Shown: positions 27,120 to 47,179 of the stretch, one piece after another
Numbering within the stretch: the first letter of the stretch is position 1
Layout: each line of letters starts with the position of its first letter
Assembly: GCA_043825775.1 (NCBI GenBank)
Contig: JBDRRK010000012.1
Location: 1,237-65,236 of the forward strand
Origin: an archaeon
GTDB lineage: Archaea > Nanobdellota > Nanobdellia > SCGC-AAA011-G17 > GW2011-AR17
Length of the DNA stretch: 64,000 bases
Reading direction: 5' to 3'
The notes under the pieces: model-generated
The model's input: the letters and a program-made list of their open reading frames with translations, nothing else
Databases searched by the model: none
What the model was told of the DNA's origin: nothing
Position numbers and translations under genes: made by a program

Positions 27120-28591
<1,472 letters not shown>

Positions 28592-29363: not shown

Positions 29364-29420
29364 AAGTGTTGATTAGTTTGTAGTTTTATAAATTTTATTT
29401 AGAGAAGTCCGGAAAATTTC

Positions 29421-29495
29421 TGCCCTGGCCGGGATTTGAACCCGGGTCTTCACCTCGAAAGGGTGAAATGATTGACCGTGCTACACCACCAGGGC
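29421..29495 (-). tRNA. tRNA-Glu (TTC)
   Basis: rc = GCCCTGGTGGTGTAGCACGGTCAATCATTTCACCCTTTCGAGGTGAAGACCCGGGTTCAAATCCCGGCCAGGGCA; anticodon loop CTTTCGA. Confidence 0.85.
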
Positions 29496-29578
29496 TTTAG
29501 TTCTTTGGAAATTTATTTTCTTTATAAAGTTTTCTTATTGACATAATGTTTATATATTGATAGGTTCTTGGATAATTA

Positions 29579-31485: not shown

Positions 31486-32702
31486 TTAAAGACTATTTTG
31501 CATTTGCTTTCAGGAGCATTGTAACAAGGAAGTTAAGAAGTTGGTTAACTATAATTGGAATTTTTATTGGTATTGCTACGGTTGTTGCTTTGATTGCAGT
31601 TGGTCAAGGAATGGAAGCTGCTGTTACAGAACAGTTTGAAAAATTAGGAACTGATAAAATTGTTATTTCTGCTGGTGGAGATGCTGCTGGTTCTACTTTT
31701 GGAATGGGTTTGGCTGCTAAACCTATAACTTATGATGATATAGATGTTGTCAATGATGTAAGGGGTGTTGATGTTGCTGCTGGAATGGTTACAAGAATTG
31801 CAGCTGTAAAATTTGGTGATGAAACTAAAAATACATGGATTAATGGTTATCCTGTAGATGAAACTTCTGAGGTTATTGAAGATATACAGTCATATAAAGT
31901 TATTGAGGGAAGAGATTTAGAAGATGGTGATACTTATGAGATGGTTATTGGAAATGATTTTGCTTATGATTTTTTTGAGGATGAAGTTTCTGTTGGTGAT
32001 AAAATAGAGATTGAAGGTAAGAAATTTAGGGTTATTGGTATCTTGGATACGATTGGAAATAGACAGGATGATACAGCTGCTTCTATTCCAATTGATACAG
32101 CTGCTGAAATATTTGGTACAAGGGATGAAATTTATGGAATAATGGTTAAAGTTGATGCTGGTGAAGATCCTCCTGTTATTGCTGAGAGAATTAAAGAAGA
32201 TTTAAGAGATTTTAGAGACGAAGAAGAAGGGGAAGAAAGTTTTTCTGTTCAAACTTTTCAGCAGATTTTGGAACAGGTAGGAGTTGTGTTGAATATTATT
32301 ACTGCTGTGTTGTTAGGGATTGCTGGAATTTCATTGTTAGTTGGTGGAATAGGTATTATGAATACTATGTATACTTCTGTACTTGAGAGAACAAAAGAGA
32401 TTGGAATTATGAAAAGTATTGGTGCTAAGAATTCTGATGTTATGTTAATATTTGTTTTAGAATCTGGGATGTATGGTTTGGTTGGAGGGGGAGTTGGTAT
32501 TATCTTTGGTGCTGGTTTATCCTTGATTGTTGCACAGGTTGCTGGAGCTGCATTAGGCATTGATTATTTTAGGGCTCAGATTTCTATATGGTTGATTTTA
32601 GGTGCTTTAGCTTTTAGTTTTATTGTTGGAATTGCTTCTGGTGTATTCCCTGCTAGACAGGCTTCAAAGATGCAGCCAGTTGATGCATTGAGATATGAGT
32701 AA
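31482..32702 (+). CDS. ABC transporter permease, FtsX/MacB-like
   Basis: N-terminal TM, large extracytoplasmic domain, C-terminal 3 TM with an FtsX-type 'MYTSVLERTKEIGIMKSIGA' segment. Confidence 0.8.
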   Translation: MIKDYFAFAFRSIVTRKLRSWLTIIGIFIGIATVVALIAVGQGMEAAVTEQFEKLGTDKIVISAGGDAAGSTFGMGLAAKPITYDDIDVVNDVRGVDVAAGMVTRIAAVKFGDETKNTWINGYPVDETSEVIEDIQSYKVIEGRDLEDGDTYEMVIGNDFAYDFFEDEVSVGDKIEIEGKKFRVIGILDTIGNRQDDTAASIPIDTAAEIFGTRDEIYGIMVKVDAGEDPPVIAERIKEDLRDFRDEEEGEESFSVQTFQQILEQVGVVLNIITAVLLGIAGISLLVGGIGIMNTMYTSVLERTKEIGIMKSIGAKNSDVMLIFVLESGMYGLVGGGVGIIFGAGLSLIVAQVAGAALGIDYFRAQISIWLILGALAFSFIVGIASGVFPARQASKMQPVDALRYE

Positions 32703-32737
32703 AGCTTTTAAAGAAAAGTTTTGTATTCTTTAGATAT

Positions 32738-32868
32738 GCCGAGGTGGCGCAACCTGGTACCGCGCAGATTATATTTATAGTATAAGTGTAAGCCTGGAAA
32801 GAGAATCTTTTCAAGACCAGATAGCCTGTTTCCATCTGGATATCTGGGTTCGAATCCCAGCCTCGGCG
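32738..32868 (+). tRNA. Intron-containing tRNA (about 131 nt; identity undetermined), integration target
   Basis: Acceptor GCCGAGG/CCTCGGC + discriminator G; D-arm GCG-CAACCTGGTAC-CGC; anticodon stem CAGAT…ATCTG interrupted by about 57 nt; T-arm CTGGG-TTCGAAT-CCCAG. Confidence 0.6.
32856..32868 (+). repeat. attL: 13-bp direct repeat 'cccagcctcggcg' (3' end of the tRNA)
   Basis: Exact copy recurs at 45863-45875. Confidence 0.55.
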
Positions 32869-32987
32869 GATTTATTCTGTTTAGGTTCCCTGTATGAAAA
32901 TATGTATCGACTTCATACTTGTGTTTAGGTTCGCTGTAGGTATTACCTGCACTTAAATATGAGTTCTGACATAATAGGAGTATAACA

Positions 32988-34220
32988 ATGGCAGAAGATG
33001 ATATCTATAAAAGTAAGCAAAAATATGAAACTGTTGTTAATGGTTTTGATAGCTTAATAGAGAAACCAACTGGTAAAAGTAAATATTTTTGTAAGAATAA
33101 AAAGAATATAAAATATTTTAAGGGGTTGGTTAAATATTTTGATTTGAAAGATTTAAGTTATATTAGAAGACGTAAGGTTTTGTACATTATGAGATTAATT
33201 ACTTTTGTGATTAAAAAAGATTTGAAAGATTGTGAAAGAGAAGATGTTAATGAATTGGTTGCTTTTGGTCATGAAAGGTTTAAGACAATAACAAGTAAAA
33301 AAGATTTTATCAAGGATGTAAAAGTAATTTGGAGAGTTCTTTTTCCTGAAAAAGATAATAAGGGAAGAATAGATGAAACCTTAACTCCTTATGCAGTAAG
33401 GCATTTGTCTAATAAAATAGATAAAAGTAAAGAGAAATTAAGGAATGATAGGATTTCTTTAGAAGAGTTTGAAGCGATTGTTAAATTCTATGATAATGAT
33501 CCTAAAATGCAGGCTTATTTGACTCTTGCTTTTGAAAGTTTGGGTAGACCTCAGGAAATTCTTTATACTAAAATAAAAGATTATGAATTTTATGATAACT
33601 ATGCGAGGATTTGGATATCTGAACATGGGAAAGAAGGATGTGGTTTTTTACAATGTATTGATAGTCTGCCTTATGTTTTGAATTGGTATAGGAATCATCC
33701 TTTGAAAGGTGATAAAGATGCATTCTTTTTTATTAGTGAGAACAATAGGGCTAAGTATGGGCAGTTGAAAAACCATAATATCAATCAAAGATTAAAACAT
33801 GCTTGTAAGGTTTTAGGTATTGATAAGAATATAACTTGTTATTCTTTGAAAAGAAATGGTATTACTCATAGAAGAATAAGAGGAGATTCTGATACAGAGA
33901 TACAGCATGCTGCCAGATGGACTTCTACAAGGCAGTTGAAGATATATGATATGAGTACTCAAGAAGATGCCTTGAAAATTGCTTTGAAGAAAAGAGGGTT
34001 TGTAGAGAAAGAGTCTAATGTAAATACTGAAAGTAAAAAGTGTGTGTTTTGTGGTCAAGATAATGGGTTTTCAGAAGAGTTTTGCTCTGTTTGTAAAAGA
34101 CCTTTAGATAGGGATAAGTTAAGGGAACAGGCACAGATGCACGAAAGGTTGATGCAGAACAATATTGTCCAGAAATTAGATAAAATGGAGCAGATGTTTG
34201 GGAAGATGAAAAAGATGTAA
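32988..34220 (+). CDS. Tyrosine-type site-specific integrase (with C-terminal zinc ribbon)
   Basis: Box I-like 'ESLGRPQEI'; C-terminal catalytic region '…ITHRR…QHAARWTSTRQLKIYD' with H/W/Y spacing typical of Xer/integrase family; 'CVFCGQ…CSVCKRP' zinc ribbon. Confidence 0.7.
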   Translation: MAEDDIYKSKQKYETVVNGFDSLIEKPTGKSKYFCKNKKNIKYFKGLVKYFDLKDLSYIRRRKVLYIMRLITFVIKKDLKDCEREDVNELVAFGHERFKTITSKKDFIKDVKVIWRVLFPEKDNKGRIDETLTPYAVRHLSNKIDKSKEKLRNDRISLEEFEAIVKFYDNDPKMQAYLTLAFESLGRPQEILYTKIKDYEFYDNYARIWISEHGKEGCGFLQCIDSLPYVLNWYRNHPLKGDKDAFFFISENNRAKYGQLKNHNINQRLKHACKVLGIDKNITCYSLKRNGITHRRIRGDSDTEIQHAARWTSTRQLKIYDMSTQEDALKIALKKRGFVEKESNVNTESKKCVFCGQDNGFSEEFCSVCKRPLDRDKLREQAQMHERLMQNNIVQKLDKMEQMFGKMKKM

Positions 34221-34280
34221 TTCTAAAGTAGTAACATAACCAAAAGGCTTATAAAGGAGTGTAAAATCCCACTTTACAAG

Positions 34281-34424
34281 ATGAAACAGAAATTAAGCAT
34301 AACTATCGAGGAAGAAACTATAAAAAAATTAGAACAATTCATCCAAACTGGTAAATTTAGAAATAAATCACACTTAATAGAATATAGTCTTAATGAATTT
34401 TTGAGAGGAGAAAAAAATGAGTGA
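34281..34424 (+). CDS. Ribbon-helix-helix (CopG/Arc-like) small DNA-binding protein
   Basis: 47 aa 'MKQKLSITIEEETIKKLEQFIQTGKFRNKSHLIEYSLNEFL' fits the RHH pattern (beta-strand 'ITIEEE' then two helices). Not in the ORF track because it is under 60 aa; overlaps the next start. Confidence 0.5.
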   Translation: MKQKLSITIEEETIKKLEQFIQTGKFRNKSHLIEYSLNEFLRGEKNE

Positions 34425-35784
34425 ATTAACCTATGATGAATTAGTATTTCCAAATTATGTAAATAGTAATACTGCAGTTCGATTGAGAGCTAATATTGAT
34501 GGAAGATTACAAACATTAGAGTTAAGTGTTTGTGATATGGCTTATGCAATTGAACTTGCTGGTTTGAATAGTTTATGGTTATCTGATACTGGAAGAGGTA
34601 AAACTCAGTTAATGTCTGATATTGCTTGGCATCATTTTGGTGGTGACCAAGAAGAAGGTGATGCTAACTGGGCTGATGGAAGACCAAGTTTTGATATTAC
34701 TGATTTGTTTGAAAGAACTCAAGTTGATTTAGAATCAGGAAAGTTTGATAGTGATACTGCTCGTCAAGTTAAGGCAAACAGAATTAGAAGAATGTTTTTT
34801 GGAGTTGATGAAATTAATCGTGCTCCTAATCCAAGACAGAACGAATTTTTTGATTTAGCTGATGGTAAATATACTTTTAATGGGAGGAGACTGGATTTAG
34901 GTAAAGAAGGTTATGCTATTTTTATGGCTACTGCCAACTTAAACAAAATGAATGGTGATTTCTCTGGAACTTTTGAATTAGATAGAGCTCTTTTGAACAG
35001 AGCCCATGTAACTATAGATTTAGATCATCCTGATTTCAGACCTACTGTTGAGGATGAAATGCTTATTGAAGAGGGGAAAGCTAATCCAAAAGTAGATATT
35101 GCTCCTGCTCAAAATTTAAGTGGTAAAATCTTAACAGCAAATAAAGAAATAATGGCTACAGCTAGACAACTGAATCCTTATTTTACTGCTTTTAGATTTT
35201 TGATAGGAAGAGGATTAGATTATTGTGCTACAGATAAATATGATGAAAAAGGATCAAATTTTCCAATGCTCTGTGCTGAATGTGATGACACAGGTAAAGA
35301 TCTTTGTTCTAGGGTTAAAGGTTCTTCAGAAAGAACCTTACCTGCAGTAAAGAGTTTAGCTTATGCTTTGTCATATATTGCAAAATTGAAAACTGGAAAA
35401 GAAGTTGAAATTGATCCATTAGATGCTACTTTGCAGGCATTTAGATTTACTACATATCATGGTAATTTAAATGAGCTTATGGCTGAAGACCAATATGCAA
35501 TGAGAAAACAGATTATGATGGATGAAACAGTTGAAAAGTTATCTGGTGTTGTTGATGTTTTACGTCCTTATTTGCCAATTATGATAGATGGTGGGGAACC
35601 AGTTATTGTTAGTTACCAATTTAAAGGTGAACAATTTGATGGTCCAAAAACAGATAAAACAATTAGTACATTAAGAAAAGCAGGGATTTCATATCAGGAA
35701 AAGGGACTCAAAGCTGAATTAAAAGAACAAGGTCTTGGTACTGACTGGATTGACCCTTATGTTAAATCTATGAGGAAAAAATGA
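34417..35784 (+). CDS. MoxR-family AAA+ ATPase
   Basis: Walker A-like 'SDTGRGKTQL'; Walker B 'FFGVDEINRAPNPRQNEFFDLADG'; sensor-1 region 'FMATANLNKMNGDFSGTFELDRALLNRA'; these match MoxR 'DEINRAxPKTQSALLE…ATQNP…GTYPLPEAQLDRF'. Confidence 0.75.
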   Translation: MSELTYDELVFPNYVNSNTAVRLRANIDGRLQTLELSVCDMAYAIELAGLNSLWLSDTGRGKTQLMSDIAWHHFGGDQEEGDANWADGRPSFDITDLFERTQVDLESGKFDSDTARQVKANRIRRMFFGVDEINRAPNPRQNEFFDLADGKYTFNGRRLDLGKEGYAIFMATANLNKMNGDFSGTFELDRALLNRAHVTIDLDHPDFRPTVEDEMLIEEGKANPKVDIAPAQNLSGKILTANKEIMATARQLNPYFTAFRFLIGRGLDYCATDKYDEKGSNFPMLCAECDDTGKDLCSRVKGSSERTLPAVKSLAYALSYIAKLKTGKEVEIDPLDATLQAFRFTTYHGNLNELMAEDQYAMRKQIMMDETVEKLSGVVDVLRPYLPIMIDGGEPVIVSYQFKGEQFDGPKTDKTISTLRKAGISYQEKGLKAELKEQGLGTDWIDPYVKSMRKK

Positions 35785-36551
35785 CTAACACACTAAAACC
35801 ACTGAACTTAGGAAGAAGAATACTAACAGAAGAGGAAGTTTTAGAGCAGTTAGCGGGTTATCAACCAACTAATCCTAGACAAGAACTTGAACCAACTCCT
35901 CAACCACAACCAACACCGGAGCCAGAACAAGAAGCAGATATAATTCCTCAAGACTATATACTATTAGAAGGAACAAATAACTATCAAGATACATTTATTT
36001 CAACTACAAGAACACACCAAGGAAATAATTGGAATAAAACCCAAGAGCTTTTACATGCACGAGATCTCTATATGCCTACTATTAAGCAATTTGTTGATTT
36101 TCTTAAATTACTGAGAAGTGGAACAGCTTTTAATGGAAATGGAGATAACATTCCATCTTCACAACTGGATGCAATATACAAGGACATAACTGAAGTGAAA
36201 GACCCATGGAGAGCAGAATGGTTGGATGCTAAATTTGAAGGTAACCTTATTCATTATCATCATAGAACCAGGCAGGGAAGTTTACAATCTGTAGTTTCAG
36301 AAGGACTAGTTCCATATTTAAGACAGGACAAGACCCCCGGTATTGATTTAGAATACTGGATAAACAATTCCACTTCACAAGGTTTACCTTTGGATAATAC
36401 TCTAAATGGGAATTTATATTATTGGCATCCAAGAGATGGTGCTGTCGCGAGGTTCAGTGCGAATTCGGATAGGGCTTACCTTATTTGTAGCAGGTACCCT
36501 TGGAGCTCGAATTCCTCTCTCGGGGTACGTCCTTGCGCGCGAAAAAATTAA
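35781..36551 (+). CDS. DGR target protein 1 (C-terminal variable C-type-lectin/FGE-like fold ending '…SLGVRPCARKN')
   Basis: The 3' end contains VR1, which is homologous to the TR with adenine-specific mismatches; paralog of 38375-39166; start overlaps the MoxR stop. Confidence 0.8.
   Translation: MTNTLKPLNLGRRILTEEEVLEQLAGYQPTNPRQELEPTPQPQPTPEPEQEADIIPQDYILLEGTNNYQDTFISTTRTHQGNNWNKTQELLHARDLYMPTIKQFVDFLKLLRSGTAFNGNGDNIPSSQLDAIYKDITEVKDPWRAEWLDAKFEGNLIHYHHRTRQGSLQSVVSEGLVPYLRQDKTPGIDLEYWINNSTSQGLPLDNTLNGNLYYWHPRDGAVARFSANSDRAYLICSRYPWSSNSSLGVRPCARKN
36442..36522 (+). repeat. DGR variable repeat VR1
   Basis: 81 nt aligned to the TR (39419-39519); 8 mismatches, all at TR adenines. Confidence 0.8.
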
Positions 36552-36569
36552 CGATCAATACAAGAAAAA

Positions 36570-38378
36570 ATGGATACAAACCAAGTAACAGAAGAAATCA
36601 AGGCAAGAGAAACTGCAAGATTTAACTATAAAGGAAAGGTTTTAGTTAGAGAGTTATCTAGAGAACCTTGTTTTTCTGGCAGTATTGATATGCTTACTAC
36701 TGCAAAAATAGAGGTTGGTTATAATCCAGATTATCCAGAAGAAGCTCAACATTTAGAAGGAATTGTTACTGAACCTTTTGAAAGAGCAATGACTTCAGTT
36801 TTAAGACATGAGCTTAATCATAAAGGTGGAGGAGAATTTCAAGGATGCCCTAGAAATATTGATTTACATGCTGAAAATGTTCTTGAACCTGCAGCAGAAG
36901 TATTACAAAGTTTAGGTTTACCAAATGTCCCTGTTACTGAAAATCAAACTCTTTATGCTTACATGGCTAACTTAATAGAAGATGTTTTTGACAATGCAGA
37001 ATTAGGCAATAATTCTGACCATGTTGGTATGTTTCTAGCTTACAAAGATGATGCTCAACATCTACCTGATGATATGGAAGGGAAACTCTCACCTCTATTT
37101 GATGCTTTTGTTCAATTGCAACAAAAATTATATGGTGGGAGAGCAAGCAGAAAATTATTAGCTGAACATTATTCTGATGATAATAGAGTTCAAACTGCAA
37201 TTGATAATTTTATGCAAAGGTCTGGTTTGACTGATATGACGAGAGAAGTCACAACTAGAAGAAGAAAAGAGAGAGTTGAAATATTTGATAGAAAAGAAGC
37301 AGTTCAATATTTGATGGATGAAAACAATTGGCCAGAATTGTCAAAAATCTTAACAGAAGAATTTGCTGAATTGATTGATAAAAATAAATTACAACAACCA
37401 GATTATGTTAAAGGAACTTTCATACCTCTAAAAGGTGAGGCTGATGGATTTTCTGATGAAATGGATGATAAAGAGACTAAAATGAGATTAGTTTGGAAAA
37501 AATATGTTGAAGGAAAGGGAAAAGAATCAAGTCCTGCTTTCCAACCTCCTGCTTATTTAGAAAGTTTTGAAGCTTTGGATTTAGTCTATCAAAGATTAGC
37601 AAGAAATTTAGAAATCAAAACAAAAGCTTCCACAAGAACTGCAAGTATGCCTGTAATGCACTATGGAAAGAGAAAGTTTGACCCAAGAAGAGATAAATTA
37701 TCAAAAGCCAGAATTGGTTTTGGCAGAAAAGGAAAATTAGAGTTAAGTGTAGGAAGATTTCATGAGGATTATCCAGTTGAATATACTGAAAGAATGAGAA
37801 GTCTGCCAGAAATAAAGTTTGTTATGATGGATACCTCTGGAAGTATGTCTCATCCTGTAGAAGGAAGTGATACTGGTAAAGTCATGAATCCTTGGGCAGA
37901 TGAAAGAAGACAATGGGGAGATAATAGCAGATATCATCATGCGTTAGTTGCTTGGTATGGTTTGTTAGGATTATTAAGAAAACAAGGAACATTAAAACAT
38001 AAATCAGTCAAATTAGCTAATTATTCAAGTTCTACTCAAACAGCTTCTGATTTAAGAGATGCTAAAAAATTGGCTTTAACACCTCAGTTCGGAGGTACAG
38101 AGTTAGATTTAGACACTATTGATGATATGTTTGGAAGAGACCAGTTGATATTCTCTTTATCAGATGGAGATGTTGATAACTGGAATCGAATTAAAGATGA
38201 ATATATCCAAAGAGCCAAACAAAATCATTATTTTCATTTGCAAATTGGTGGAGAAACAGCAATGTCACGAGATTTAGAATCTGCAGGTTTGGTAGTTAAA
38301 TATGATGATGGTAAGAATTTAGGTAAAATGGTTATTGATTTAACAAGACCATATATTACTAGGATGGAGAAAAAATGA
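36570..38378 (+). CDS. VWA-domain protein with MIDAS motif (MoxR partner)
   Basis: C-terminal half: 'KFVMMDTSGSMS' (DxSxS MIDAS) and downstream 'IFSLSDGDVDNW'; follows the MoxR gene pattern. Confidence 0.75.
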   Translation: MDTNQVTEEIKARETARFNYKGKVLVRELSREPCFSGSIDMLTTAKIEVGYNPDYPEEAQHLEGIVTEPFERAMTSVLRHELNHKGGGEFQGCPRNIDLHAENVLEPAAEVLQSLGLPNVPVTENQTLYAYMANLIEDVFDNAELGNNSDHVGMFLAYKDDAQHLPDDMEGKLSPLFDAFVQLQQKLYGGRASRKLLAEHYSDDNRVQTAIDNFMQRSGLTDMTREVTTRRRKERVEIFDRKEAVQYLMDENNWPELSKILTEEFAELIDKNKLQQPDYVKGTFIPLKGEADGFSDEMDDKETKMRLVWKKYVEGKGKESSPAFQPPAYLESFEALDLVYQRLARNLEIKTKASTRTASMPVMHYGKRKFDPRRDKLSKARIGFGRKGKLELSVGRFHEDYPVEYTERMRSLPEIKFVMMDTSGSMSHPVEGSDTGKVMNPWADERRQWGDNSRYHHALVAWYGLLGLLRKQGTLKHKSVKLANYSSSTQTASDLRDAKKLALTPQFGGTELDLDTIDDMFGRDQLIFSLSDGDVDNWNRIKDEYIQRAKQNHYFHLQIGGETAMSRDLESAGLVVKYDDGKNLGKMVIDLTRPYITRMEKK

Positions 38379-39166
38379 CTAACACACTAAAACCCCTGAA
38401 CTTAGGAAGAAGAATACTAACAGAAGAGGAAGTTTTAGAGCAGTTAGCAGGTTATCAACCAACTAATCCTAGACAAGAACCTGAACCAACACCTCAACCA
38501 CAACCAACACGGGAACCAGAACAAGAAGCAGATATAATTCCTCAAGATTATATTCTATTAGAATCTACTGGTAATTATCCAGATACTCACATTTCAACTA
38601 CAAGGATACACCAAGGAAATAATTGGTTTCAAGCACATGAAGAGCTACACAAAGAAGGATTGTATATGCCTACATTAAGACAGTTTGTAGATTTCTTAAA
38701 GTTATTAAAAGGAGGAAAGGCATTTAATGGCCAAGGAAATAAAATTCCAAAAAACCAATTGGAACAAATACTGAAAGAAATAATTGAAGTAAGAGCTCCT
38801 GGTAGAGCAGAGTGGCTTGATGCTGATTTTAAGGTAAAGAGTGATATTTTACATATAAATTACAATCATAGAACTGTTGGTGGACAATTACAACCAAATC
38901 AGTCAGAAGTTTTACAACCTTATTTGGATCAAAATAAAACTCCGGGAATTGGTTTAGAGTATTGGTTAAACAATGCAACATCAAGACATGGTCTGCCACC
39001 AGCAAATACTTCAGATGGAAGTTTATATTACTGGGCTCCAATGTCTGACAATAATTCTGTCGCGAGGTTCGATGCGTATTCGGGTAGGGCTAGCCTTAGT
39101 TGTGACGGGAACCCTAGGGACTCGAATTCCTCTCTCGGGGTACGTCCTTGCGCGCGAAAAAATTAA
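38375..39166 (+). CDS. DGR target protein 2 (paralog of target 1)
   Basis: Same N-terminal 60 aa and same C-terminal '…SNSSLGVRPCARKN' as target 1; contains VR2; start overlaps the VWA stop. Confidence 0.8.
   Translation: MTNTLKPLNLGRRILTEEEVLEQLAGYQPTNPRQEPEPTPQPQPTREPEQEADIIPQDYILLESTGNYPDTHISTTRIHQGNNWFQAHEELHKEGLYMPTLRQFVDFLKLLKGGKAFNGQGNKIPKNQLEQILKEIIEVRAPGRAEWLDADFKVKSDILHINYNHRTVGGQLQPNQSEVLQPYLDQNKTPGIGLEYWLNNATSRHGLPPANTSDGSLYYWAPMSDNNSVARFDAYSGRASLSCDGNPRDSNSSLGVRPCARKN
39057..39138 (+). repeat. DGR variable repeat VR2
   Basis: Aligned to the TR; 9 mismatches, all at TR adenines. Confidence 0.8.
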
Positions 39167-39418
39167 CTATCAATACAAGACATAAAAATATAAAAACTAT
39201 GATTTTCTTAATTCCTTGTCTTAGAGACATTATCTTGAGTATTTCCACATCCTAAGGAAATGCAATGAAGGATAATCGCAAGGGCTACATGTAGATTCAT
39301 TAGTGCATTTTCAAAATGTCATAAAATTCAATAATGATAGATAGTAATAATGACAAACCTTGGGAAAGTTTAGAGTGAAACCTAAAATTATGGTGCTTTT
39401 ACAATGAGTTTGCTAAAT

Positions 39419-39519
39419 CTGTCGCGAGGTTCAATGCGAATTCGGATAGGGCTAACCTTAATTGTAACAGGAACCCTAGGAACTCGAAATCTTTTTTAAG
39501 ACGAGATTTCCTCTCTCGG
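39419..39519 (+). repeat. DGR template repeat (TR) with embedded hairpin (39486-39510), immediately upstream of the RT
   Basis: A-rich copy 'ctgtcgcgaggttcaatgcgaattcggatagggctaaccttaattgtaacaggaaccctaggaactcgaaat…cctctctcgg'. It translates to N-A-N-S-D-R-A-N-L-N-C-N-R-N-P-R-N-S (AAC/AAT codons). It lies in non-coding DNA 24 nt upstream of the RT start. Confidence 0.8.
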
Positions 39520-39542
39520 AATAACCTTTGTTATCTAAGACA

Positions 39543-40669
39543 ATGAAAACTTGCAAAAACTTATATTCAAAACTATATTCAATAGACAACCTAAAATTAG
39601 CATTCACAAAAGCTAGAAAAGGAAAAACACTTAGACTAGAGGTAATCAAATTTGAAAAGAATCTTAATAGGGAATTACCTCAACTAAAGAATGAATTAAA
39701 GTTTTTAACTTATAAACCTAAACCTCTAGTAAACTTTATTATTAGGGATCCTAAAATCAGAAAAATAAGCAAATCTCATTTTAGAGATAGAGTTGTCCAT
39801 CATGCACTTTGCAACCTAATAACTCCCATCTTTGAAAAAACATTTATCTTGGATTCTTATGCAAATCAAATAGATAAAGGAACATTAGCTGCTATTCAAA
39901 GATTTGATTATTTCAAGAGAAAAGTAACCAAAAACAATACAAAAAATGCTTATGTTTTCAAGGCAGACATAAGAAAATATTTTGAATCGATAAATCATGA
40001 GATTCTAACAAACACTATAAAAAAGAAAATAAAAGATAGAAGAATAATCTGGTTAATACAAATCATCCTCAACAATTCAACTGGGGGGGGGGCGAACAGA
40101 AAAAGGGCAACATAAATCAAAGATTTCTTTCCTCATATATTCAGAAGGGAATGCCTTTGGGAAACTTAACATCCCAATTCTTTGCAAACCTTTATCTCAA
40201 TGAATTGGATTATTTTGTAAAACGCAAACTAAAAATAAAATATTACATTCGTTATGTTGATGATTTCATAATCTTTCACAATTCAAAAGAAAAACTTGAA
40301 TTTTACAAGGAAGAGATAGGTTCTTTTCTAACGAGTAAATTAGATATAGAATTACATCCAGATAAATCAAGAATATTTCCTATTCACCGAGGAACAAACT
40401 TTCTTGGATTTAAAATATTCCCTTATCATAGGATTATAAAAAACCAAAATCTAAGGAGATTTAAAGGTAAATTAAAACAACTTGAAAAACAATACAGACA
40501 AGGGGGTATAAGTTATGATGAACTATATGATTCCTTGGAAGGCTGGCTTGCTTATGCTAAAAATGCTAATACTTACAAATTGAGAAAGGAGATTTTAGAA
40601 CAAGTAGAAACTCTGTTTTCGAAAGAGGTTTCAAGTAAAGAGATAAATAGATATCAAAAATATAACTAA
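39543..40669 (+). CDS. Diversity-generating retroelement reverse transcriptase (frameshifted in a G10 tract; two ORF fragments 39528-40115 and 40151-40669)
   Basis: RT motif 2 'FKADIRKYFESINHE'; DGR-specific motif 4 'GMPLGNLTSQFFANLYLNELD' (SQ replacing QG); motif 5 'YVDDFIIF'. A homopolymer at 40083-40092 interrupts the frame; an 11-G version reads through. Confidence 0.85.
40083..40092 (+). repeat. G10 homopolymer causing the RT frameshift
   Basis: 'aactggggggggggcgaac'; frame 1 stops 20 nt downstream; the +2 frame is open across the tract and into ORF2. Confidence 0.7.
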
Positions 40670-41064
40670 ACCCGGCCCAAATACCCTAATCTAATTAAAT
40701 CAGAAACACTTGTATTCATCTTCTCAGAAGCTGTTTTGAGCTTTATATACTCATTTTTAGAAATTTTAATAGAAAGAACCCTTGTTTTAGTAAAATATCT
40801 CTTTGAATTGATTATCTCCATTCCTGCCTCTCTTTTAATCTTTGAACCCTTCTATCAGTATTTTCAATTATCAAATCAATCTCTTTCCACATCTCTTTTC
40901 TTAATTTCAATAGTTCCTTTTGAAATTCTTCTTCCATAATACAATAATGGATTTCAATCCTTAAAAAAGATAGAGTGGAAAAAAATATAGCAAAAAATAT
41001 AGCAAAAAAATGTACAAAAAAATTCACTCGTCAATTTAAATACCCTCATTCCGCTAAGTAGATA

Positions 41065-42384
41065 ATGGCTAAAAATAATGATTCTTTGGATGTTACTGCA
41101 GTTATAATAATTCTTGTTGGGATAATAAGTGTTTGTTATATTTGGTGGGAAAGGAATGGACAAGAAATAGAAGCGTCATTTCTCGCAATTCCATGGGTAA
41201 AGATAGGCATAATTATCTTACTTACTCTTATTTCAATATTTATTGTCTATAAAACAATAAAGTACATAGAAAAGAGAAAAAAAGAAAAACAAAGAACAGA
41301 AGAAAGAATAGAAAACGAAAAAAATACCCTTCTTTCCCTACTAAATACAGATTTTCAAGGAAATTCTAGAGAAATAGAAGAACAATACAAAAAAATAAAT
41401 AAAAGAATCAAAGAAATAAATAAAAACATTAGAAATCAATACCAAAAAGAGATAAAATCATTACATAAGAAAACAAAGAATTTAATCCAAACTATAGAAC
41501 AACAAGAATATATAAGATATGAAAGACAATTAGAACAAGAAAGAGAAGAAGAACTAAAAAGAAAAAGACATAAAAATAAAGTAAAAGAATTATTTGAATA
41601 CAAGAAAAAATTAAATTCAATAAGGGCACTACCCTTAAACAAAAAATACTCTTCTGATGTTATTAATGAAGCTACAAAATTAATGAAATACTATGAACAT
41701 AAACAAGGACAACTAAATGAAACAAGAGAAAATGCAATAGAATATTACAAAACACATCCATTGGACACACAACCAGAGATTAGGGAAAATGAAGAAAAAT
41801 TATACAAAGAAGTAAGAGACCAAATAAAACAAGGGAAAATAGAACTAAAGAAAAAACCAAAAATAGAATATCAAGGTAAAAAACTGGAAAAGGATTTTTA
41901 CCTGTCAAAGGATTTAAATGAAGAGACAAAAGCAAAAGCTAGAGCTCAGGGATTTGTACAAGTTGATGGAATAAAACTTGATGGAAAGATACAGGGTGGT
42001 GGTTATTATATAAGAAAGGAAAATCCAAGAGAGAGTAAAAAACACTTCTACTTAAAACACTTATTTGCTAAACTACATGAAAATACACAATTAGAATATC
42101 AGGTTAAAGGCAAAAGGGTAGATGTAGTATTATTGATAGAAGATTACAAGTTAGGGATAGAAATAGAAACTGGAGCCAATAGAGAAAAACAATTAATGGA
42201 GAAGATTTCTTGGTTAAACAAGAATTTTGATCAATGGATTTTTGTCTGTCCAAAAGAGTTGCATGGGAAATATAATAAATTAGTAAATCCTAAGAAAAGC
42301 TTTTGTTTGGGGATTAAGGAAGCAAAGGAATTCATCTTGGAGTTGACTTTACCTGTTGAAGATCTGCAAAGAACAGGTAAATAG
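41065..42384 (+). CDS. Membrane-anchored coiled-coil protein with C-terminal PD-(D/E)xK-like module (hypothetical)
   Basis: 2 N-terminal TM helices, long K/E-rich coiled coil, C-terminal 'GKRVDVVLLIEDYKLGIEIETG'. Confidence 0.4.
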   Translation: MAKNNDSLDVTAVIIILVGIISVCYIWWERNGQEIEASFLAIPWVKIGIIILLTLISIFIVYKTIKYIEKRKKEKQRTEERIENEKNTLLSLLNTDFQGNSREIEEQYKKINKRIKEINKNIRNQYQKEIKSLHKKTKNLIQTIEQQEYIRYERQLEQEREEELKRKRHKNKVKELFEYKKKLNSIRALPLNKKYSSDVINEATKLMKYYEHKQGQLNETRENAIEYYKTHPLDTQPEIRENEEKLYKEVRDQIKQGKIELKKKPKIEYQGKKLEKDFYLSKDLNEETKAKARAQGFVQVDGIKLDGKIQGGGYYIRKENPRESKKHFYLKHLFAKLHENTQLEYQVKGKRVDVVLLIEDYKLGIEIETGANREKQLMEKISWLNKNFDQWIFVCPKELHGKYNKLVNPKKSFCLGIKEAKEFILELTLPVEDLQRTGK

Positions 42385-42479
42385 GCTTAATGCATTAAAA
42401 TTTAGCTATTTCAAGGCTTTTTGGTCTTGCATTAAATAGATACTTTACAGGTAAATATCTACTATATATTAAAAGACAA

Positions 42480-43532
42480 TTAGTATTTATCCAGAATCTT
42501 ATTAAGGAATTTTATAAATTCTTTAGTATCTAAAAAGTAATTAGGATAAGCTTTCTTCAAATCAGCAGTAGTATCAGCACCAACAAGAACAACATCATAT
42601 TCTTTTTTACCATAAATTCTTTTTTCAGCTTTAGCATAATCGTCAAGTGCTTTCTCTTCTTGTCTTTTTGAATAAGAAGTAATGACTAACTTTTCTTGAA
42701 TTGTATCTAATTCAAGTAAGAAAAAATGTACATTTTTTTTACTCTTTAAATCATCAAAAAACTTAATTGATTTAGCCCAACCTACCATCTTAGTTCTAAC
42801 ATTTAATTTTTTTTCTTTTTCCTTGATCAATAAATAAAGTTCTTTTTCATTTGAGGGAGTATTAGGAACTTGAGGACAATTTTCTAATCTTGCAAATGCT
42901 GAACTAACCAATTTAAAGAATTCTTTCCATTCTTCTTCTCCTTCATTTGATTTAATCGCTTGACCAGTAAAAAAATCAACTGTTTCAACTGCTGTAGCCC
43001 AAATATGTTGTAATCTAGATCTAATTTGTACTTCAATTAATAATCCATTATAGATTTTTCTTTTTTCTTTATCACTATTGTATCTATAAATTAAATGTAT
43101 GCTTCTATACCCATCTTCCTTTGGATAGGTAATATAATCCTTTTCATTTACTTTTTTATGTTTTAAGGTTCCATTTGAATAGTAGTCTTGATAGAGCTTC
43201 TTTGCCAATTCAACATCTGTCATAACAGCCCTACATCCTGCAATATCTTGCATTTGAGTTAATTTCATTGTAGCTTTTTTTCCATCATATTTCCTATGCA
43301 ATTTTTTTAAGATAGAAGATACTCTCTTTAGTCTCTGTGCAGATAATGAACTTGGATCTATCTTTTCAGAAGATCTCTTTAACCTTTGCTTAAAAACATG
43401 CATAGGGTAGCTATGGGCCGCTCTCCAATTACTTAAAACCCCTAAAGCTTTGGAACTTTCCTTTTTTGTTAAAATAACTCCTGCAGCATCAGTTTCAGAT
43501 TTGGAGTATTTTTTAGGGTTTATTTGTTTCAT
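42480..43532 (-). CDS. RelA/SpoT-homolog (RSH) synthetase-domain protein with C-terminal extension (toxSAS/CapRel-like)
   Basis: Synthetase motifs 'QRLKRVSSILKKL' (Syn1), 'DIAGCRAVM' (Syn2), 'GYRSIHLIY' (Syn3), 'EVQIRSRLQHIWATAVE' (Syn4), followed by about 140 aa of non-RSH sequence. Confidence 0.7.
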   Translation of the reverse strand: MKQINPKKYSKSETDAAGVILTKKESSKALGVLSNWRAAHSYPMHVFKQRLKRSSEKIDPSSLSAQRLKRVSSILKKLHRKYDGKKATMKLTQMQDIAGCRAVMTDVELAKKLYQDYYSNGTLKHKKVNEKDYITYPKEDGYRSIHLIYRYNSDKEKRKIYNGLLIEVQIRSRLQHIWATAVETVDFFTGQAIKSNEGEEEWKEFFKLVSSAFARLENCPQVPNTPSNEKELYLLIKEKEKKLNVRTKMVGWAKSIKFFDDLKSKKNVHFFLLELDTIQEKLVITSYSKRQEEKALDDYAKAEKRIYGKKEYDVVLVGADTTADLKKAYPNYFLDTKEFIKFLNKILDKY

Positions 43533-43758
43533 TAGGCTTTAATAAACCATTATTATATATAAATCTTTCCTAATGCGCAACAAAATATTATAATAAATGT
43601 CATTTTGCGCTATTTTAAAAGGCTTAAATTATCCTTTAAAATGAAAAATAAGGCTATTTTAACCTTTTTTTAAAAATACCATTTTTTATGTGTCATTTTG
43701 CGCAGTATTAAAAATAAAAATTTATCTATTGCGCTATTTAAAAAGTACCAATTCTTAA

Positions 43759-44100
43759 GTGGCAAAGCACTGCCCAAAGCACTGCCTGAAGCAGTGCTTA
43801 AAGCACAGCCCAAATGTTAAATGTTCCCAAATCTTATACTATTATATGAACCAGATACAAAGATCGGGGGAAAAGACAATTCAGGGAAGATTGTCCTATA
43901 GTGAAAGTTCTCAAGGTTGGTCAATATTAAGACTGAAAAAGGAAGTTCTAAATGAATTCAAGACACTTAAGGAAAAGAGAAATCCATCTGGTTACAAGCT
44001 TGTTTTGTTTGACAATTATGAACAGGCAGAATCTCATTTGAAGAAGATAAAAGAGACTTGTATGGAACCCCCTGTTTTTCTGGTATTTGAGAGATTGTAA
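43759..44100 (+). CDS. Hypothetical protein (true start probably at internal 'MNQIQ', about 43846)
   Basis: The N-terminal 30 codons translate a 12-bp tandem DNA repeat and are probably non-coding. Confidence 0.3.
   Translation: MAKHCPKHCLKQCLKHSPNVKCSQILYYYMNQIQRSGEKTIQGRLSYSESSQGWSILRLKKEVLNEFKTLKEKRNPSGYKLVLFDNYEQAESHLKKIKETCMEPPVFLVFERL
43764..43811 (+). repeat. 4 x 12-bp tandem repeat (aaagcactgccc / aaagcactgcct / gaagcagtgctt / aaagcacagccc); iteron/operator-like
   Basis: Direct inspection. Further repeats 'tgtcattttgcgc' (43598, 43691) and 'ttgcgctattt(t)aaaa' (43605, 43730) lie in the same divergent intergenic region. Confidence 0.5.
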
Positions 44101-44140
44101 TTCAATAATTCTTTTAAAGATATTTTTGTTTTTTTAAGGT

Positions 44141-44623
44141 ATGTTAGAATTATCTAAGGAAATTGGAAGGAAGATAGAAATAACAATTACCCTAGCAATA
44201 TTTCTCATTGTAGTGATAAAAGCCTTTCTAGATCAATTTGCTCCAAATAATGCTAATATAATTTCTCTAAAATTTTCAATGGTGGTAGGAGTGTATATTG
44301 GAATATACTTTATCTATCATTTAGTAAAAAACAAAATTCCATCGATAAACAAATCTATGATATGGGCAAATAGATTGCTGACCATTAATTTTTTGGTAAT
44401 TATGTTATTAGTATTCTATATTCCTAGCATGGATTCAATAGAAAAAATTCCTGCAATAATTTTATTCCTTTTACCTTATTTTTTTGTAGTACTACTTTGG
44501 TCTTCAATATTAATCCCAACAATTGTATTCTTTATATTTGCTTCAAAATTAGGAAGAGAAATTAAAAAGAAATTAAAATTTAGAAAAATAGCAAATAGCA
44601 ACTCCGAGTTGGAAAAAGATTAA
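44141..44623 (+). CDS. Polytopic membrane protein (hypothetical)
   Basis: 160 aa, 4 hydrophobic helices. Confidence 0.4.
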   Translation: MLELSKEIGRKIEITITLAIFLIVVIKAFLDQFAPNNANIISLKFSMVVGVYIGIYFIYHLVKNKIPSINKSMIWANRLLTINFLVIMLLVFYIPSMDSIEKIPAIILFLLPYFFVVLLWSSILIPTIVFFIFASKLGREIKKKLKFRKIANSNSELEKD

Positions 44624-45040
44624 AATAAAAGTAATTATAGACCATTTCTGAGTATTTGAAGCTTGATCTTGACATTCTTGCAATTTAGAAAAAACTAATT
44701 CATCATATGATTCCCACCCTTCAAGAAATAATTCATATTTATCTTTATAATATCTTGATTCGTCTGCCCAAAAATCAGTTGTTCCAGAATCATTACTCAA
44801 AATACCTACTGCTACAGCATTTTTTGCCCATGTTTCTTCAAATAGAGTATATTGTTCATCTACAAAAGCCTGAGTTTTATTCAAAAGAAGTCTATTCGCT
44901 TGATTATTGCAAGACGTTTCTTTTAATGAAGAACAAAAAGAGAATGCAACAGATAAGGCTATCAAAGCTGAAAGTAGCATAAAAGAAGCATTCAATAAAC
45001 CTTTGTTGTGCTCCTTGATAAATTTAGTAATTATTCCCAT
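44573..45040 (-). CDS. Hypothetical secreted/membrane-anchored protein
   Basis: N-terminal TM 'LLNASFMLLSALIALSVAFSF'. Confidence 0.35.
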   Translation of the reverse strand: MGIITKFIKEHNKGLLNASFMLLSALIALSVAFSFCSSLKETSCNNQANRLLLNKTQAFVDEQYTLFEETWAKNAVAVGILSNDSGTTDFWADESRYYKDKYELFLEGWESYDELVFSKLQECQDQASNTQKWSIITFILIFFQLGVAICYFSKF

Positions 45041-45086
45041 AAACTAATAATAGTACAAGATTATTTAATATTTGCTAAAAAAAGGA

Positions 45087-45728
45087 TTAAGAAATATTTA
45101 ATTTGGAATCACAATACAATTTTGTCTTAGTACATATTTCTTGATATAATTCATCAATATAACATGCAAAATTTCCTGATTTACAAACAAGAGCAGGAGG
45201 ATTTTTGTTTAATAAGTCAAGTAATTTATTACTTGCTTCTACATTTGTTTCATACTTTATCGAATCAATATAATATTCATTATTATTAACTTGCCAAAAT
45301 AATTTAATCCAAATCTTTTTTTCATAAACACCAGTTTCAGTTAAAGCTACAAACTTCTTTCCTTCTAAATCTTTTGCATTTTTCCAAGGAGCATAGTTTA
45401 TTAAACCAGCTTTACTCCCATGTGCAAGCTTACTCCTAACAATATATATTGGATGATTCCTTTCTTTCAAAAATTTATCATCTACTATTTCTAATATGGA
45501 ATATGTAAATATTATAAATGAATAGATCATAGAACTTCGAATAGTTATTTCGGATTTAATGTCCTTACCTAAGTCATTATGAGAAATAAGAACTTGAACA
45601 ATATTTTCAATATTATTTAAAAAGAAGTTTATGCAATAAATTTTTTTTAAATTATCATCATGCAAGTTATCAATTTTTTTTAGATATTCTTTAAAAAGAG
45701 GTTTCCATTCACAATACTCGTCACTCAT
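45087..45728 (-). CDS. Hypothetical protein with HEPN-like Rx4H motif
   Basis: 'RSKLAHG' (R-x4-H) in a predicted helical protein; last gene before attR. Confidence 0.35.
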   Translation of the reverse strand: MSDEYCEWKPLFKEYLKKIDNLHDDNLKKIYCINFFLNNIENIVQVLISHNDLGKDIKSEITIRSSMIYSFIIFTYSILEIVDDKFLKERNHPIYIVRSKLAHGSKAGLINYAPWKNAKDLEGKKFVALTETGVYEKKIWIKLFWQVNNNEYYIDSIKYETNVEASNKLLDLLNKNPPALVCKSGNFACYIDELYQEICTKTKLYCDSKLNIS

Positions 45729-45862
45729 AAGTTTAAATTATATGAGTTATTTATAAAATTTATTATACAGAAGACCTTATAAACTTCAAAATCTTGTCTA
45801 AAAATAACAAAAAATTTATGTTAAGAACTCATAAATTAGAGAGCTTCAACAGGCGCTAGGCA

Positions 45863-45875
45863 CCCAGCCTCGGCG
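45863..45875 (+). repeat. attR: second copy of 'cccagcctcggcg'
   Basis: Exact 13-mer identical to the tRNA 3' end at 32856-32868. Confidence 0.55.
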
Positions 45876-45877
45876 TT

Positions 45878-47179
45878 TTATAATCCTAGAATTTTATTTA
45901 TTACCTGTTGTTTTAATTCAGGTGGATCTGTTTCTATTTGAGCTGCATATACTAAAAAGTTTAAGAAATTAATATTGTCTGCATTGTTTAGTATTTCTAG
46001 AGCCATTCCTAGAGGAATTATTATTGATACTTCACCTTCATATAATCCTTCTTCAACTTTTACTATTTTTCCATTTTCTAAGTCTGCTTTTATGTTGAAG
46101 TTTTCATCATCTTTGATTATTAGATTTACTTTATCATAATCACTTAGTATATATGTGAAGAAATCGTTGGAATTAATGAACCATACAATCATTTCTGGAT
46201 TTTCTACTTCCCATTCTTCTGGTAGATTTAAGTTTACTACTTCATCTTCAATTATTTCTATTTCTTCTTCTTTTTCTTGAGTTATTTCTTCTTGAATTTC
46301 TTCTTCTACTTCAGGTTCATATATCTTAGCACAATCAATTGATTCTATAATTGTGTCTGCTGTATCTTCGTCAAACATTGATTCAACACAAGTATAAGAA
46401 GCAGTGTAGGTTTTATAATTACAATAATTAAAACCTGCTTTTGATTTTAGTAAAATATCATTGTAATAACTAGTGTATTCAAGAGTTGTATCATCGATTT
46501 TTGTTATAGAACAATCTTCACAATTGTCCATTGTTGTGTACATCCAGTTGTAAACATCATCTAATTTTGAGTTTGTTTCACTAATATAAACATTACAGTA
46601 ATCTTGTTTTAGGATTATTGTATCCTGTTGTTTACTCTCTTCCCAATTGGGAGTTTGCATTGAGAAATCCTCATCATTGTAATTGTTAAATTTAATCTCT
46701 TCTTTTTTATTTGTGTCACATTGTGCTGATGTAAAGAATTGTGAGAATTTTTCTTCATCGTATAGAGTATGTTCACAGCTTAGGATTATGTTGTAAGCAT
46801 AATTATTGCAGGAGAATACCTTTACTTTGTTGTAGATTAGGTATGTTTCATATAAATTTGTGTATTCTATTTCTTTTTTTATTTCACTTTGTTTTATTAC
46901 TTCTATATTTTCATTTGCTAAGTATGTTAATAACCATTCATACATTAATTCATCATTTCCATCATATTTATTTACAGCTAAGTTGCATCCTTCAATAGGT
47001 ATTATAAACAATGTTTCATTAAAATCAAAGGTTCCTTCCGCATCTGGATGATCAATTGAAAAACCTAAATCATTTTCATAAATTGTCCAGGTCATCTCTT
47101 CTTTAATTGGTTCTTCTATTGGAATTTCAGTACACCCAACTATAAAAATTAATAATAAAAATAATAATAATCTTTTCAT
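45878..47179 (-). CDS. Acidic secreted lipoprotein (hypothetical)
   Basis: Lipobox-like 'LLLIFIVGCTE'; highly acidic, Cys-rich. Confidence 0.5.
   Translation of the reverse strand: MKRLLLFLLLIFIVGCTEIPIEEPIKEEMTWTIYENDLGFSIDHPDAEGTFDFNETLFIIPIEGCNLAVNKYDGNDELMYEWLLTYLANENIEVIKQSEIKKEIEYTNLYETYLIYNKVKVFSCNNYAYNIILSCEHTLYDEEKFSQFFTSAQCDTNKKEEIKFNNYNDEDFSMQTPNWEESKQQDTIILKQDYCNVYISETNSKLDDVYNWMYTTMDNCEDCSITKIDDTTLEYTSYYNDILLKSKAGFNYCNYKTYTASYTCVESMFDEDTADTIIESIDCAKIYEPEVEEEIQEEITQEKEEEIEIIEDEVVNLNLPEEWEVENPEMIVWFINSNDFFTYILSDYDKVNLIIKDDENFNIKADLENGKIVKVEEGLYEGEVSIIIPLGMALEILNNADNINFLNFLVYAAQIETDPPELKQQVINKILGL

Follow-up and report, generated by a model that had tools for sequence, protein, structure and literature searches.

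A probable integrated genomic island at the 3' end of a two-intron tRNA-Ser(GGA) gene in a DPANN-type archaeon

Target gene, repeats and integrase

The window examined here is a stretch of 64,000 nucleotides of archaeal DNA (contig JBDRRK010000012.1, positions 1,237 to 65,236), and all coordinates given below refer to it unless another contig is named. It contains a tRNA-Ser(GGA) gene followed by a segment, 32869-45875, which ends in the second of two copies of a short direct repeat and encodes a tyrosine integrase, a diversity-generating retroelement (DGR) and a number of smaller cargo genes. An earlier note on this DNA had described an integrative element bounded by a GC-rich 13-bp repeat at the 3' end of an intron-containing tRNA. 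The window has a G+C content of about 30%, and its ribosomal operon (16S-tRNA(Ala)-23S, 23779-28591) and its RNase P RNA are both archaeal. The public labels of proteins matching the region are 'archaeon', Woesearchaeota or Nanoarchaeota. Together with the ribosomal operon and the RNase P RNA, these labels identify the host as a DPANN-type archaeon (Woesearchaeota/Nanoarchaeota-like).

The host tRNA-Ser(GGA) gene, which is the integration target, occupies positions 32738-32868 on the plus strand. It is a class II tRNA with two introns, recognized by a bulge-helix-bulge search followed by splicing; default ARAGORN and Rfam, in both gathering and E-value modes, missed the gene at this position. 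Intron 1 (24 nt, 32768-32791) lies at a non-canonical position inside the anticodon stem, and intron 2 (23 nt, 32800-32822) is found at the canonical 37/38 position. Removal of both gives an 84-nt class II cloverleaf which ARAGORN calls as tRNA-Ser(gga) and which has a perfect CAGGC/GCCUG anticodon stem. The orthologous gene on contig L118 keeps both introns, while that on contig L113 is naturally without intron 2 and reads GCCTGGAAAGCCTG, matching the prior prediction. The earlier note was right that an intron is present; it understated their number, two instead of one, and the tRNA can now be identified as tRNA-Ser(GGA). A tRNA-SeC call produced by the intron mode of ARAGORN was badly paired and was dropped for the two-intron tRNA-Ser(GGA).

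The 13-mer CCCAGCCTCGGCG occurs in two exact copies in the window, at 32856-32868 and 45863-45875, both on the plus strand. The left copy, the core of the left attachment site (attL), corresponds to the 3' strand of the T-stem, the 3' strand of the acceptor stem and the discriminator G, and the intact tRNA gene is retained there. The right copy forms the core of attR, and the host DNA restarts at 45876, immediately before a lipoprotein gene of the host (45878-47179, minus strand). No further copy was found in the window when one mismatch was allowed, and 100 dinucleotide-preserving shuffles of the window gave 0 matches, with 0 expected by chance, as had been supposed for a GC-rich repeat of this kind. 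The identity of the two copies stops at 13 bp, and the sequences surrounding them are unrelated. The span of the element is therefore given as 32869-45875, or 13,007 bp. The predicted attB junction reads ...GGTTCGAATCCCAGCCTCGGCG|TTTTATAATCCTAG and the predicted attP junction ...GGCGCTAGGCACCCAGCCTCGGCG|GATTTATTCTGTTTAGG.

The open reading frame (ORF) of the tyrosine integrase (32988-34220, plus strand, 410 aa) starts 120 nt 3' of the tRNA, as described earlier. The protein consists of core-binding and catalytic domains, a CxxC...CxxC zinc ribbon and a terminal helix. It matches Pfam PF00589 (Phage_integrase, 6.5e-8) and PHROG integrases, and it matches NCBIfam XerA at 6e-10, which is far under the cut-off of that family. 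At E ≤ 1e-3 there are 563 homologues, and among the best 120 the identity to the protein is 50-76%. Across an alignment of 26 homologues, residues R187, K215, R289 and Y320 do not vary, H307 is shared by 90% or more of the sequences, and the two CxxC pairs form the C-terminal zinc ribbon. The AlphaFold2 model (predicted local distance difference test score, pLDDT, 75) has two domains, and its closest folds are XerA, Cre, lambda Int and XerH; no relative was found among the sequences of the Protein Data Bank (PDB). The integrase is full length and has the complete set of catalytic residues of a tyrosine recombinase.

Two exact copies of TGTTTAGGTTCNCTGTA (32878-32894 and 32922-32938, plus strand), which may also be written as TGTTTAGGTTC repeats, are located 44 nt apart between attL and the integrase gene. 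The close relatives L004, L065 and L010 have paired repeats of their own at the equivalent place. The TGTTTAGGTTCNCTGTA pair provides candidate arm-type binding sites for the integrase. A 'suicidal' split integrase of the SSV type was considered and rejected: the ORF is intact and 120 nt from attL, and the 13-mer does not lie inside it.

Evidence for an insertion also comes from an empty site in a related genome. Orthologues of the left-flank permease were found at 72-77% identity. On the 841-kb contig L118 from the Joint Genome Institute (JGI), the gene order is ABC, CARDB, FtsX, tRNA-Ser(GGA) and a 437-aa gene on the minus strand, and the same order occurs on contig L119. The 437-aa gene is the orthologue of the lipoprotein gene at 45878-47179 and stands directly 3' of the tRNA, as the earlier note had proposed for an empty site. 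Further 3' follow the same small genes, the 436-aa gene, a major facilitator superfamily (MFS) transporter gene (in L118 only), the beta and alpha subunits of phenylalanyl-tRNA synthetase (PheRS) and TrmB. When the window was compared with L118 and L119 by tblastn, the genes of both flanks matched in collinear order, with amino-acid identities of 54-92%, and the element genes included in the comparison had no match on the two contigs. At the nucleotide level the L118 tRNA ends in ...CCCAGCCCCGGCG, after which comes GATCTTATAATCCTAGAATTTTATT; the second 13-mer of the window is followed by TTTTATAATCCTAGAATTTTATT, and the right-flank sequence TTATAATCCTAGAATTTTATT sits directly after the tRNA in the empty site of L118 and L119. 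The agreement of the flanking gene order and of the nucleotide junction means that the 13,007 bp delimited by the repeats are exactly the difference between the window genome and L118/L119. The comparison which the earlier note had suggested as a possible refutation has thus turned out in favour of its reading.

Several other sequences share the tRNA or its 3' end. Two Logan contigs of the sample SRR26275510, L001 (window 28778-32764) and L002 (window 32738-35792), break at a 27-nt overlap which is exactly the 5' exon of the tRNA, 32738-32764; this suggests that another sequence in that sample has the same exon with other flanks. On contigs L115-L117 the orthologous tRNA-Ser(GGA) is separated from FtsX by two small genes, one of them LAGLIDADG-like, and on L115 a region with Prim-Pol/PriCT/AAA_25 and large terminase genes lies 3' of the tRNA (about 12392-21200 of that contig). 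This is probably a different, virus-like element using the same tRNA. A scan of metagenomes with the 22-nt 3' end of the tRNA gave 30 loci; none of these has the flanking gene order of the window or a close relative of the integrase, the one distant match (L089) being 22% identical. The metagenomic contig L099 carries, on its reverse strand, a tRNA-Ser with the same 3' end and then TATTTATTCTGTTTAAGTACC, close to the attL-proximal GATTTATTCTGTTTAGGTTCC of the window. No integrase was found in the next 640 nt after the end of this tRNA, and L099 may represent a remnant or a different element. On contig L110, CCCAGCCTCGGCG occurs twice, at positions 2050 and 2342 (280 nt apart), 3' of a metagenomic tRNA-Ser, where it may mark a scar or a miniature element.

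The integrase family and its sister elements

The family was scanned with one genome per species, which gave 80 integrase loci taken with a flank limit of 10 kb. Several genomes hold two or three copies. A tRNA on the same strand, no more than 400 nt upstream of the integrase and mostly 60-150 nt away, is present in at least 38 of the 80 loci, and a T-arm pattern search adds further tRNAs missed by ARAGORN. Many different tRNAs are targeted across the family. At eight loci a second copy of the final 11-16 nt of the tRNA lies 6.3-10 kb downstream, and the recurring stretch stops at the discriminator or no more than 5 nt beyond it. The comparison with controls covered the 25 loci in which a tRNA is present and the downstream sequence extends for 4 kb or more. 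A same-strand repeat of the terminal tRNA 11-mer was seen downstream in 8/25 of them, and each of the three controls (downstream reverse complement, upstream same strand and upstream reverse complement) gave 0/25. Independent insertions with repeats of their own are thus marked by related integrases.

One of these sister elements, L006, employs the identical 13-mer CCCAGCCTCGGCG at a different tRNA-Ser, tRNA-Ser(UGA). The metagenome-assembled genome JABHZQ01 carries both the L006 island and the virus-like region of L115-L117. Besides the integrase, the sister elements have almost no genes in common, and their cargo is unrelated. It includes Fic/SoFic proteins, the PADLOC candidates PDC-S01 and PDC-S04, an MFS transporter, histidine phosphatases, an AAA_14 ATPase and a protein resembling a pilin of type IV secretion systems (T4SS).

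The L071 element is inserted at a tRNA-Glu with 16-bp repeats and is about 8.0 kb in size. Inside its repeats it contains a DGR consisting of a template repeat (TR), two variable repeats (VRs), two target genes and a reverse transcriptase (RT) of 535 aa, which is 57-63% identical to the RT of the window. The VR differences fall at the complement of adenines. Two elements of the same family, at different tRNAs and in different genomes, therefore carry DGRs with different targets. The earlier proposal that the DGR is mobile cargo holds, because a complete DGR stands between the repeats of an independent element as well.

Homologues of the integrase with 44-54% identity were also found on contigs labelled as bacterial (L031, L040, L050, L059, L067 and L079, and also L025/L081), the labels being Acidobacteriota, Planctomycetota, Omnitrophota and Desulfatiglandales. 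Some of them lie in surroundings of 55-60% GC which the GC of the integrase matches, and others in stretches of 35-38% GC on multi-megabase contigs. These sequences may mean that the family extends across domains, or they may be chimeras that arose in binning or assembly. The family as a whole is a large group of tRNA-targeting islands of DPANN archaea which share only the integrase and have attachment cores of 11-16 bp. It is seemingly uncharacterised in these organisms.

Genes carried between the repeats

The operon at 34417-40669 is a DGR cassette. Its first gene (34417-35784, plus strand) encodes a divergent MoxR-like AAA+ ATPase of 455 aa with the Walker A motif GRGKT and the Walker B motif FGVDEINRAP. 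The protein itself has no significant Pfam match (AAA_3, E=0.24), while its homologues (E 1e-25 to 1e-67) carry PF07728 (AAA_5), PF07726 (AAA_3) and PF20030 (bpMoxR). Target gene 1 of the DGR (35781-36551, plus strand, 256 aa) has VR1, detected through repeat family D2, at its 3' end, at about 36442-36511. It is followed by the gene of a 602-aa protein (36570-38378, plus strand) with an N-terminal HExxH motif, a putative metallopeptidase, and a C-terminal von Willebrand A (vWA) domain. Target gene 2 (38375-39166, plus strand, 263 aa) is 69% identical to target 1 and carries VR2 at about 39057-39126. Start and stop codons overlap at 35781-35784 (ATPase and target 1) and at 38375-38378 (vWA protein and target 2).

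The 602-aa protein deserves separate mention. Residues H80, E81 and H84 and the metal ion-dependent adhesion site (MIDAS) residues D421, S423, S425, T510 and D532 are invariant or nearly so in 53 homologues. The AlphaFold2 model has a pLDDT of 92, and its top Foldseek matches are vWA domains, including that of NorD, the partner of the MoxR protein NorQ. Pfam gave no vWA or peptidase match for any of the 53 members (0/53). The family comprises about 200 representative clusters in which a confident vWA fold, an invariant MIDAS and an HExxH motif are combined with blindness of Pfam. Sequence searches of the PDB with the 455-aa, 602-aa and 439-aa proteins (the last described below) returned nothing useful.

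The RNA part of the retroelement begins with an RT-16 RNA motif (Rfam RF03019; 39233-39421, plus strand; 87.7 bits against a gathering threshold of 50, E=2e-12), which lies between VR2 and the template repeat, abuts the latter and may be part of the DGR RNA. The template repeat, identified by comparison with the VRs, occupies 39419-39547 (core 39419-39488, plus strand). All mismatches between TR and VR1 (7/7) and between TR and VR2 (8/8) are located at TR adenines, 15/15 in total, which shows adenine-specific mutagenesis of both targets by the DGR. The RT gene (39528-40669, plus strand) is split into two ORFs, 39528-40115 and 40151-40669, which carry the two halves of RVT_1. A run of ten G (G10, 40083-40092), in the part of the gene that encodes a loop of the protein, puts it out of frame, and only G11 or G8 would restore the frame. 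An independent Logan contig, identical to the window over 14.4 kb, likewise has G10. The run could be a slipped-strand switch between ON and OFF states, the mark of a pseudogene, or a read error common to both assemblies. In addition, the RT of the window is without a C-terminal extension of about 150 aa that its counterparts in L071 and L121 have.

A cassette of the same five genes (ATPase, target, vWA, target, RT) is found in another DPANN genome, on contig L121 (10001-16724). Its ATPase and vWA proteins are 53-55% identical to those of the window, and its RT is intact, with 526 aa. No integrase of the present family is nearby; the neighbours are PIN, helix-turn-helix (HTH), Fic, Cas4-like and helicase genes, so that the surroundings look like another defence-rich region. 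The arrangement of ATPase, target and vWA genes is likely a module of diversified sensor, ATPase and protease-vWA protein.

The remaining cargo begins with a ribbon-helix-helix-like ORF of 51 aa (40666-40821, minus strand), assigned by its sequence, which could be a regulator or a recombination directionality factor. A membrane protein of 439 aa (41065-42384, plus strand) has two N-terminal transmembrane helices and a long charged region resembling a coiled coil. It gave weak matches to HpsJ, SLATT and LeoBC; the C-terminal motif similar to PD-(D/E)xK nucleases is our own reading and should be regarded as putative. A homologue with 49% identity adjoins the integrase in L071, inside the 16-bp repeats. 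The protein of 350 aa (42480-43532, minus strand) consists of a RelA/SpoT-type synthetase domain and a C-terminal domain and resembles the fused toxSAS protein CapRel. It matches PF04607 (1.2e-16) and, over the full length, PADLOC PDC-S33 (6.3e-114) and phrog_4773 (6e-93). Residues 8-348 align with residues 14-371 of PDB 7ztb_A at E=5.8e-46. By this similarity it is a candidate abortive-infection defence protein.

Tandem and dispersed repeats are present in two intergenic regions. The first (43590-43814) contains three units of about 32 nt (43590-43745) and 4.3 copies of the 12-nt unit CAAAGCACTGCC (43763-43814) and may be operator-like or iteron-like; the second is at 40979-41023. The small cargo genes (43846-45040) begin with an ORF of 84-113 aa, which has a homologue in the L006 element, and include a multi-pass membrane protein of 160 aa (44141-44623, plus strand) and a membrane protein of 155 aa (44573-45040, minus strand). 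The last gene (45087-45728, minus strand) encodes a HEPN-like protein of 213 aa, so called for its Rx4H motif RSKLAH; profile searches with it in Pfam, NCBIfam, PHROGs and PADLOC gave no match.

The earlier note had listed most of these genes. Its DGR is confirmed by the TR/VR pairs, RVT_1 and the RT-16 RNA, its vWA protein by fold and MIDAS though not by Pfam, and its iteron-like repeats by the two arrays at 43590-43745 and 43763-43814; its RelA/SpoT homologue (RSH) synthetase can be refined to a CapRel-like protein. The MoxR assignment is tentative, being supported indirectly by the Walker motifs and the homologues with PF07728 and PF07726, and not by a Pfam match of the protein itself. The ribbon-helix-helix, HEPN-like and lipoprotein calls, made from sequence motifs, are putative.

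Origin, mobility and significance of the element

These results allow us to propose, with a probability of roughly 0.88, that 32869-45875 is an integrated, non-viral genomic island which was inserted by its own tyrosine integrase into the last 13 bp of the tRNA-Ser(GGA) gene. The repeats, the integrase family, the empty site and the sister elements agree in this, and with it the original description of an integrative element at a tRNA 3' end. Insertion by site-specific recombination is very well supported. Present mobility, a role of the arm sites, movement from cell to cell and a function in defence are more distant deductions from the same data.

By analogy with the tyrosine-recombinase paradigm, the integrase would bind the core at the 3' end of the tRNA and probably also the two arm-type repeats inside attL. 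Strand exchange would take place within the 13-bp identity; it would restore an intact tRNA at attL and leave a 13-bp tRNA fragment at attR. Excision would be the reverse reaction, possibly aided by the small ribbon-helix-helix protein. The island could then serve as a vehicle for conflict genes: the DGR with its MoxR-like ATPase and HExxH-vWA protein, the CapRel-like toxSAS, the 439-aa membrane protein and the HEPN-like gene.

A number of observations weigh against this interpretation. GC, GC at third codon positions (GC3) and strand skews are equal between element and host genes. The shift in GC and codon usage predicted for the boundaries is thus not seen, and composition lends no independent support to an insertion and makes a recent arrival from a donor of different composition less likely. 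Logan contigs of SRR26275510 identical to the window cross attL and attR unbroken, and in the assembled contigs of this sample neither an empty site nor a circle is indicated. Their breaks fall at the 5' exon of the tRNA and at the DGR repeats, not at the attachment sites. Exact-protein look-ups found nothing for the 433-aa and 436-aa proteins of the right flank or for the 213-aa protein, and for the other proteins only SRR26275510 contigs, all identical to the window. The element has no recognized excisionase and no recognized replication or transfer function. The 13-bp attachment core is short, and the genome with the empty site is that of another species, its FtsX being 75% identical, and not of a sister strain. 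Finally, the RT is not intact, and part of the cargo may be decaying, because this gene is both frameshifted and C-terminally shorter than its relatives.

Some of these points would also fit an ancient insertion which was retained for its cargo and has lost its mobility, the integrase having been domesticated or become inert. The fully host-matched composition, the frameshifted RT and the contigs crossing both junctions in the one sample with the element are what such a fixed island would show. However, the two 13-bp repeats have remained perfect, the full-length integrase retains every catalytic residue and has paired arm repeats, and the family has made many independent insertions at different tRNAs, with several copies per genome. 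A fixed island is the alternative to be taken most seriously, although we regard it as rather unlikely.

A second possibility is an integrated plasmid whose excised circle replicates itself from the iteron-like repeats at 43590-43814 and 40979-41023, the Rep protein being hidden among the unannotated ORFs. The tandem 12-nt repeats and the three repeats of about 32 nt are indeed intergenic, several ORFs are unannotated, and one sister element has the T4SS-pilin-like protein. However, searches of Pfam, NCBIfam and PHROGs detected no Rep, primase, helicase, partition or conjugative transfer gene, the repeats are situated in divergent promoter regions and could equally well be operators, and no replication gene is common to the eight sister elements. 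The term 'plasmid-like' in the earlier note thus has nothing beyond the repeats to speak for it, and the plasmid is improbable.

A virus satellite packaged by a helper, or a degraded provirus stripped of its virion genes, is a little more improbable still. In size (6-13 kb) the elements would be typical satellites, the CapRel-like protein has a match in a PHROG family, and viruses may use the same site, as the Prim-Pol and large-terminase region behind the orthologous tRNA-Ser on L115-L117 would indicate. Against this, Pfam, PHROGs and NCBIfam revealed no capsid, portal, terminase, packaging or other virion genes in the element, and no relative of the integrase was found in 2.9 million IMG/VR contigs, so that the former view of the element as no provirus holds. 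The cargo varies fully between elements, and a conserved satellite core was not found. A chance repeat, or one made by local duplication of the tRNA end within ordinary chromosome, has only the shortness of the repeat in its favour and can be dismissed, in view of the shuffles, the boundaries fitted exactly by the L118/L119 junction, and the same architecture at eight other tRNAs (8/25 against 0/25).

The island can be compared with several known systems. Archaeal integrated elements with classical (non-suicidal) tyrosine integrases target the 3' ends of tRNAs, including intron-containing ones, with very short attachment sites; examples are the 'cryptic integrated elements' of Thaumarchaeota and the SNJ2 provirus, whose attachment site is very short (PMC8371274; PMC6563490). 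The present element resembles them in its integration at the tRNA 3' end, in the regenerated intact tRNA and in a repeat as short as the acceptor end, and it resembles some of them in that a recognisable virus or plasmid core was not found. It differs in its DPANN host, in an integrase with a zinc ribbon and a score far below the XerA cut-off, and in its cargo of DGR and defence genes. The tycheposons of Prochlorococcus are cargo islands of small streamlined genomes as well, with a tyrosine recombinase, tRNA insertion and variable cargo, many of them with a primase/helicase replication module. The likeness is one of lifestyle only; tycheposons are bacterial, their recombinases are probably of other families, and no replication module was found in the element of the window.

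According to two sources (PMC5758913; 10.1101/2020.04.01.020958), genomic islands and integrative and conjugative elements of Legionella pneumophila carry a DGR, and DGRs on bacterial islands and in phages are already known. The common feature is a DGR as cargo of a chromosomal island that bears an integrase; the Legionella islands are instead bacterial, much larger and conjugative, and they target a surface lipoprotein and not a protein linked to MoxR and vWA. DGR-linked MoxR-vWA conflict systems, the 'VMAP ternary' systems, have been described in multicellular bacteria (PMC7159879; PMC10907252). There, a MoxR-type ATPase, a vWA protein, a C-terminal variable domain diversified by the DGR and a peptidase component are encoded together; the window has a vWA protein with a putative peptidase domain, DGR-diversified variable domains and a probable MoxR-like ATPase in a similar grouping. 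Unlike in those systems, the variable domain in the window is on a separate small protein and the HExxH domain is fused to the vWA domain, where it may replace the peptidase component. No VMAP domain was identified, though no profile for it was among those searched. CapRel is a fused toxin-antitoxin of the toxSAS type (PDB 7ZTB; PMC9712102). The 350-aa protein shares with it full-length similarity and carriage on a mobile element, and differs in its archaeal host.

A wider conjecture may also be offered, tentatively and with more doubt than confidence. The zinc-ribbon integrase might define an undescribed, DPANN-wide class of tRNA-targeting cargo islands with attachment cores of 11-16 bp, and these might be the main vehicles by which DGRs, DGR-diversified MoxR/vWA sensor modules and bacterial-type abortive-infection genes such as CapRel pass between ultra-small archaea, with the G10 tract of the RT acting as a slipped-strand ON/OFF switch for hypermutation.

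The locus is a further case of a very well-known principle, the island with a tRNA-targeting integrase. The mobile elements of DPANN archaea, on which the 2021 review of archaeal tyrosine recombinases (PMC8371274) is silent, DPANN being nowhere mentioned in it, are barely catalogued, and this element is a cleanly delimited example with an empty site. It also supplies a simple recipe for finding hundreds more: a member of the integrase family, a tRNA upstream of it, and the terminal 11-16-mer of that tRNA repeated downstream. The link between a DGR and a conflict system seen here is not reported for clade 5F in the literature compared. By joining a DPANN DGR to a MoxR-like ATPase, an HExxH-vWA protein and a CapRel-like toxin, the locus extends the idea of a diversified sensor in a conflict system from multicellular bacteria to these organisms, and it provides direct evidence that DGRs in DPANN archaea travel on integrative islands.

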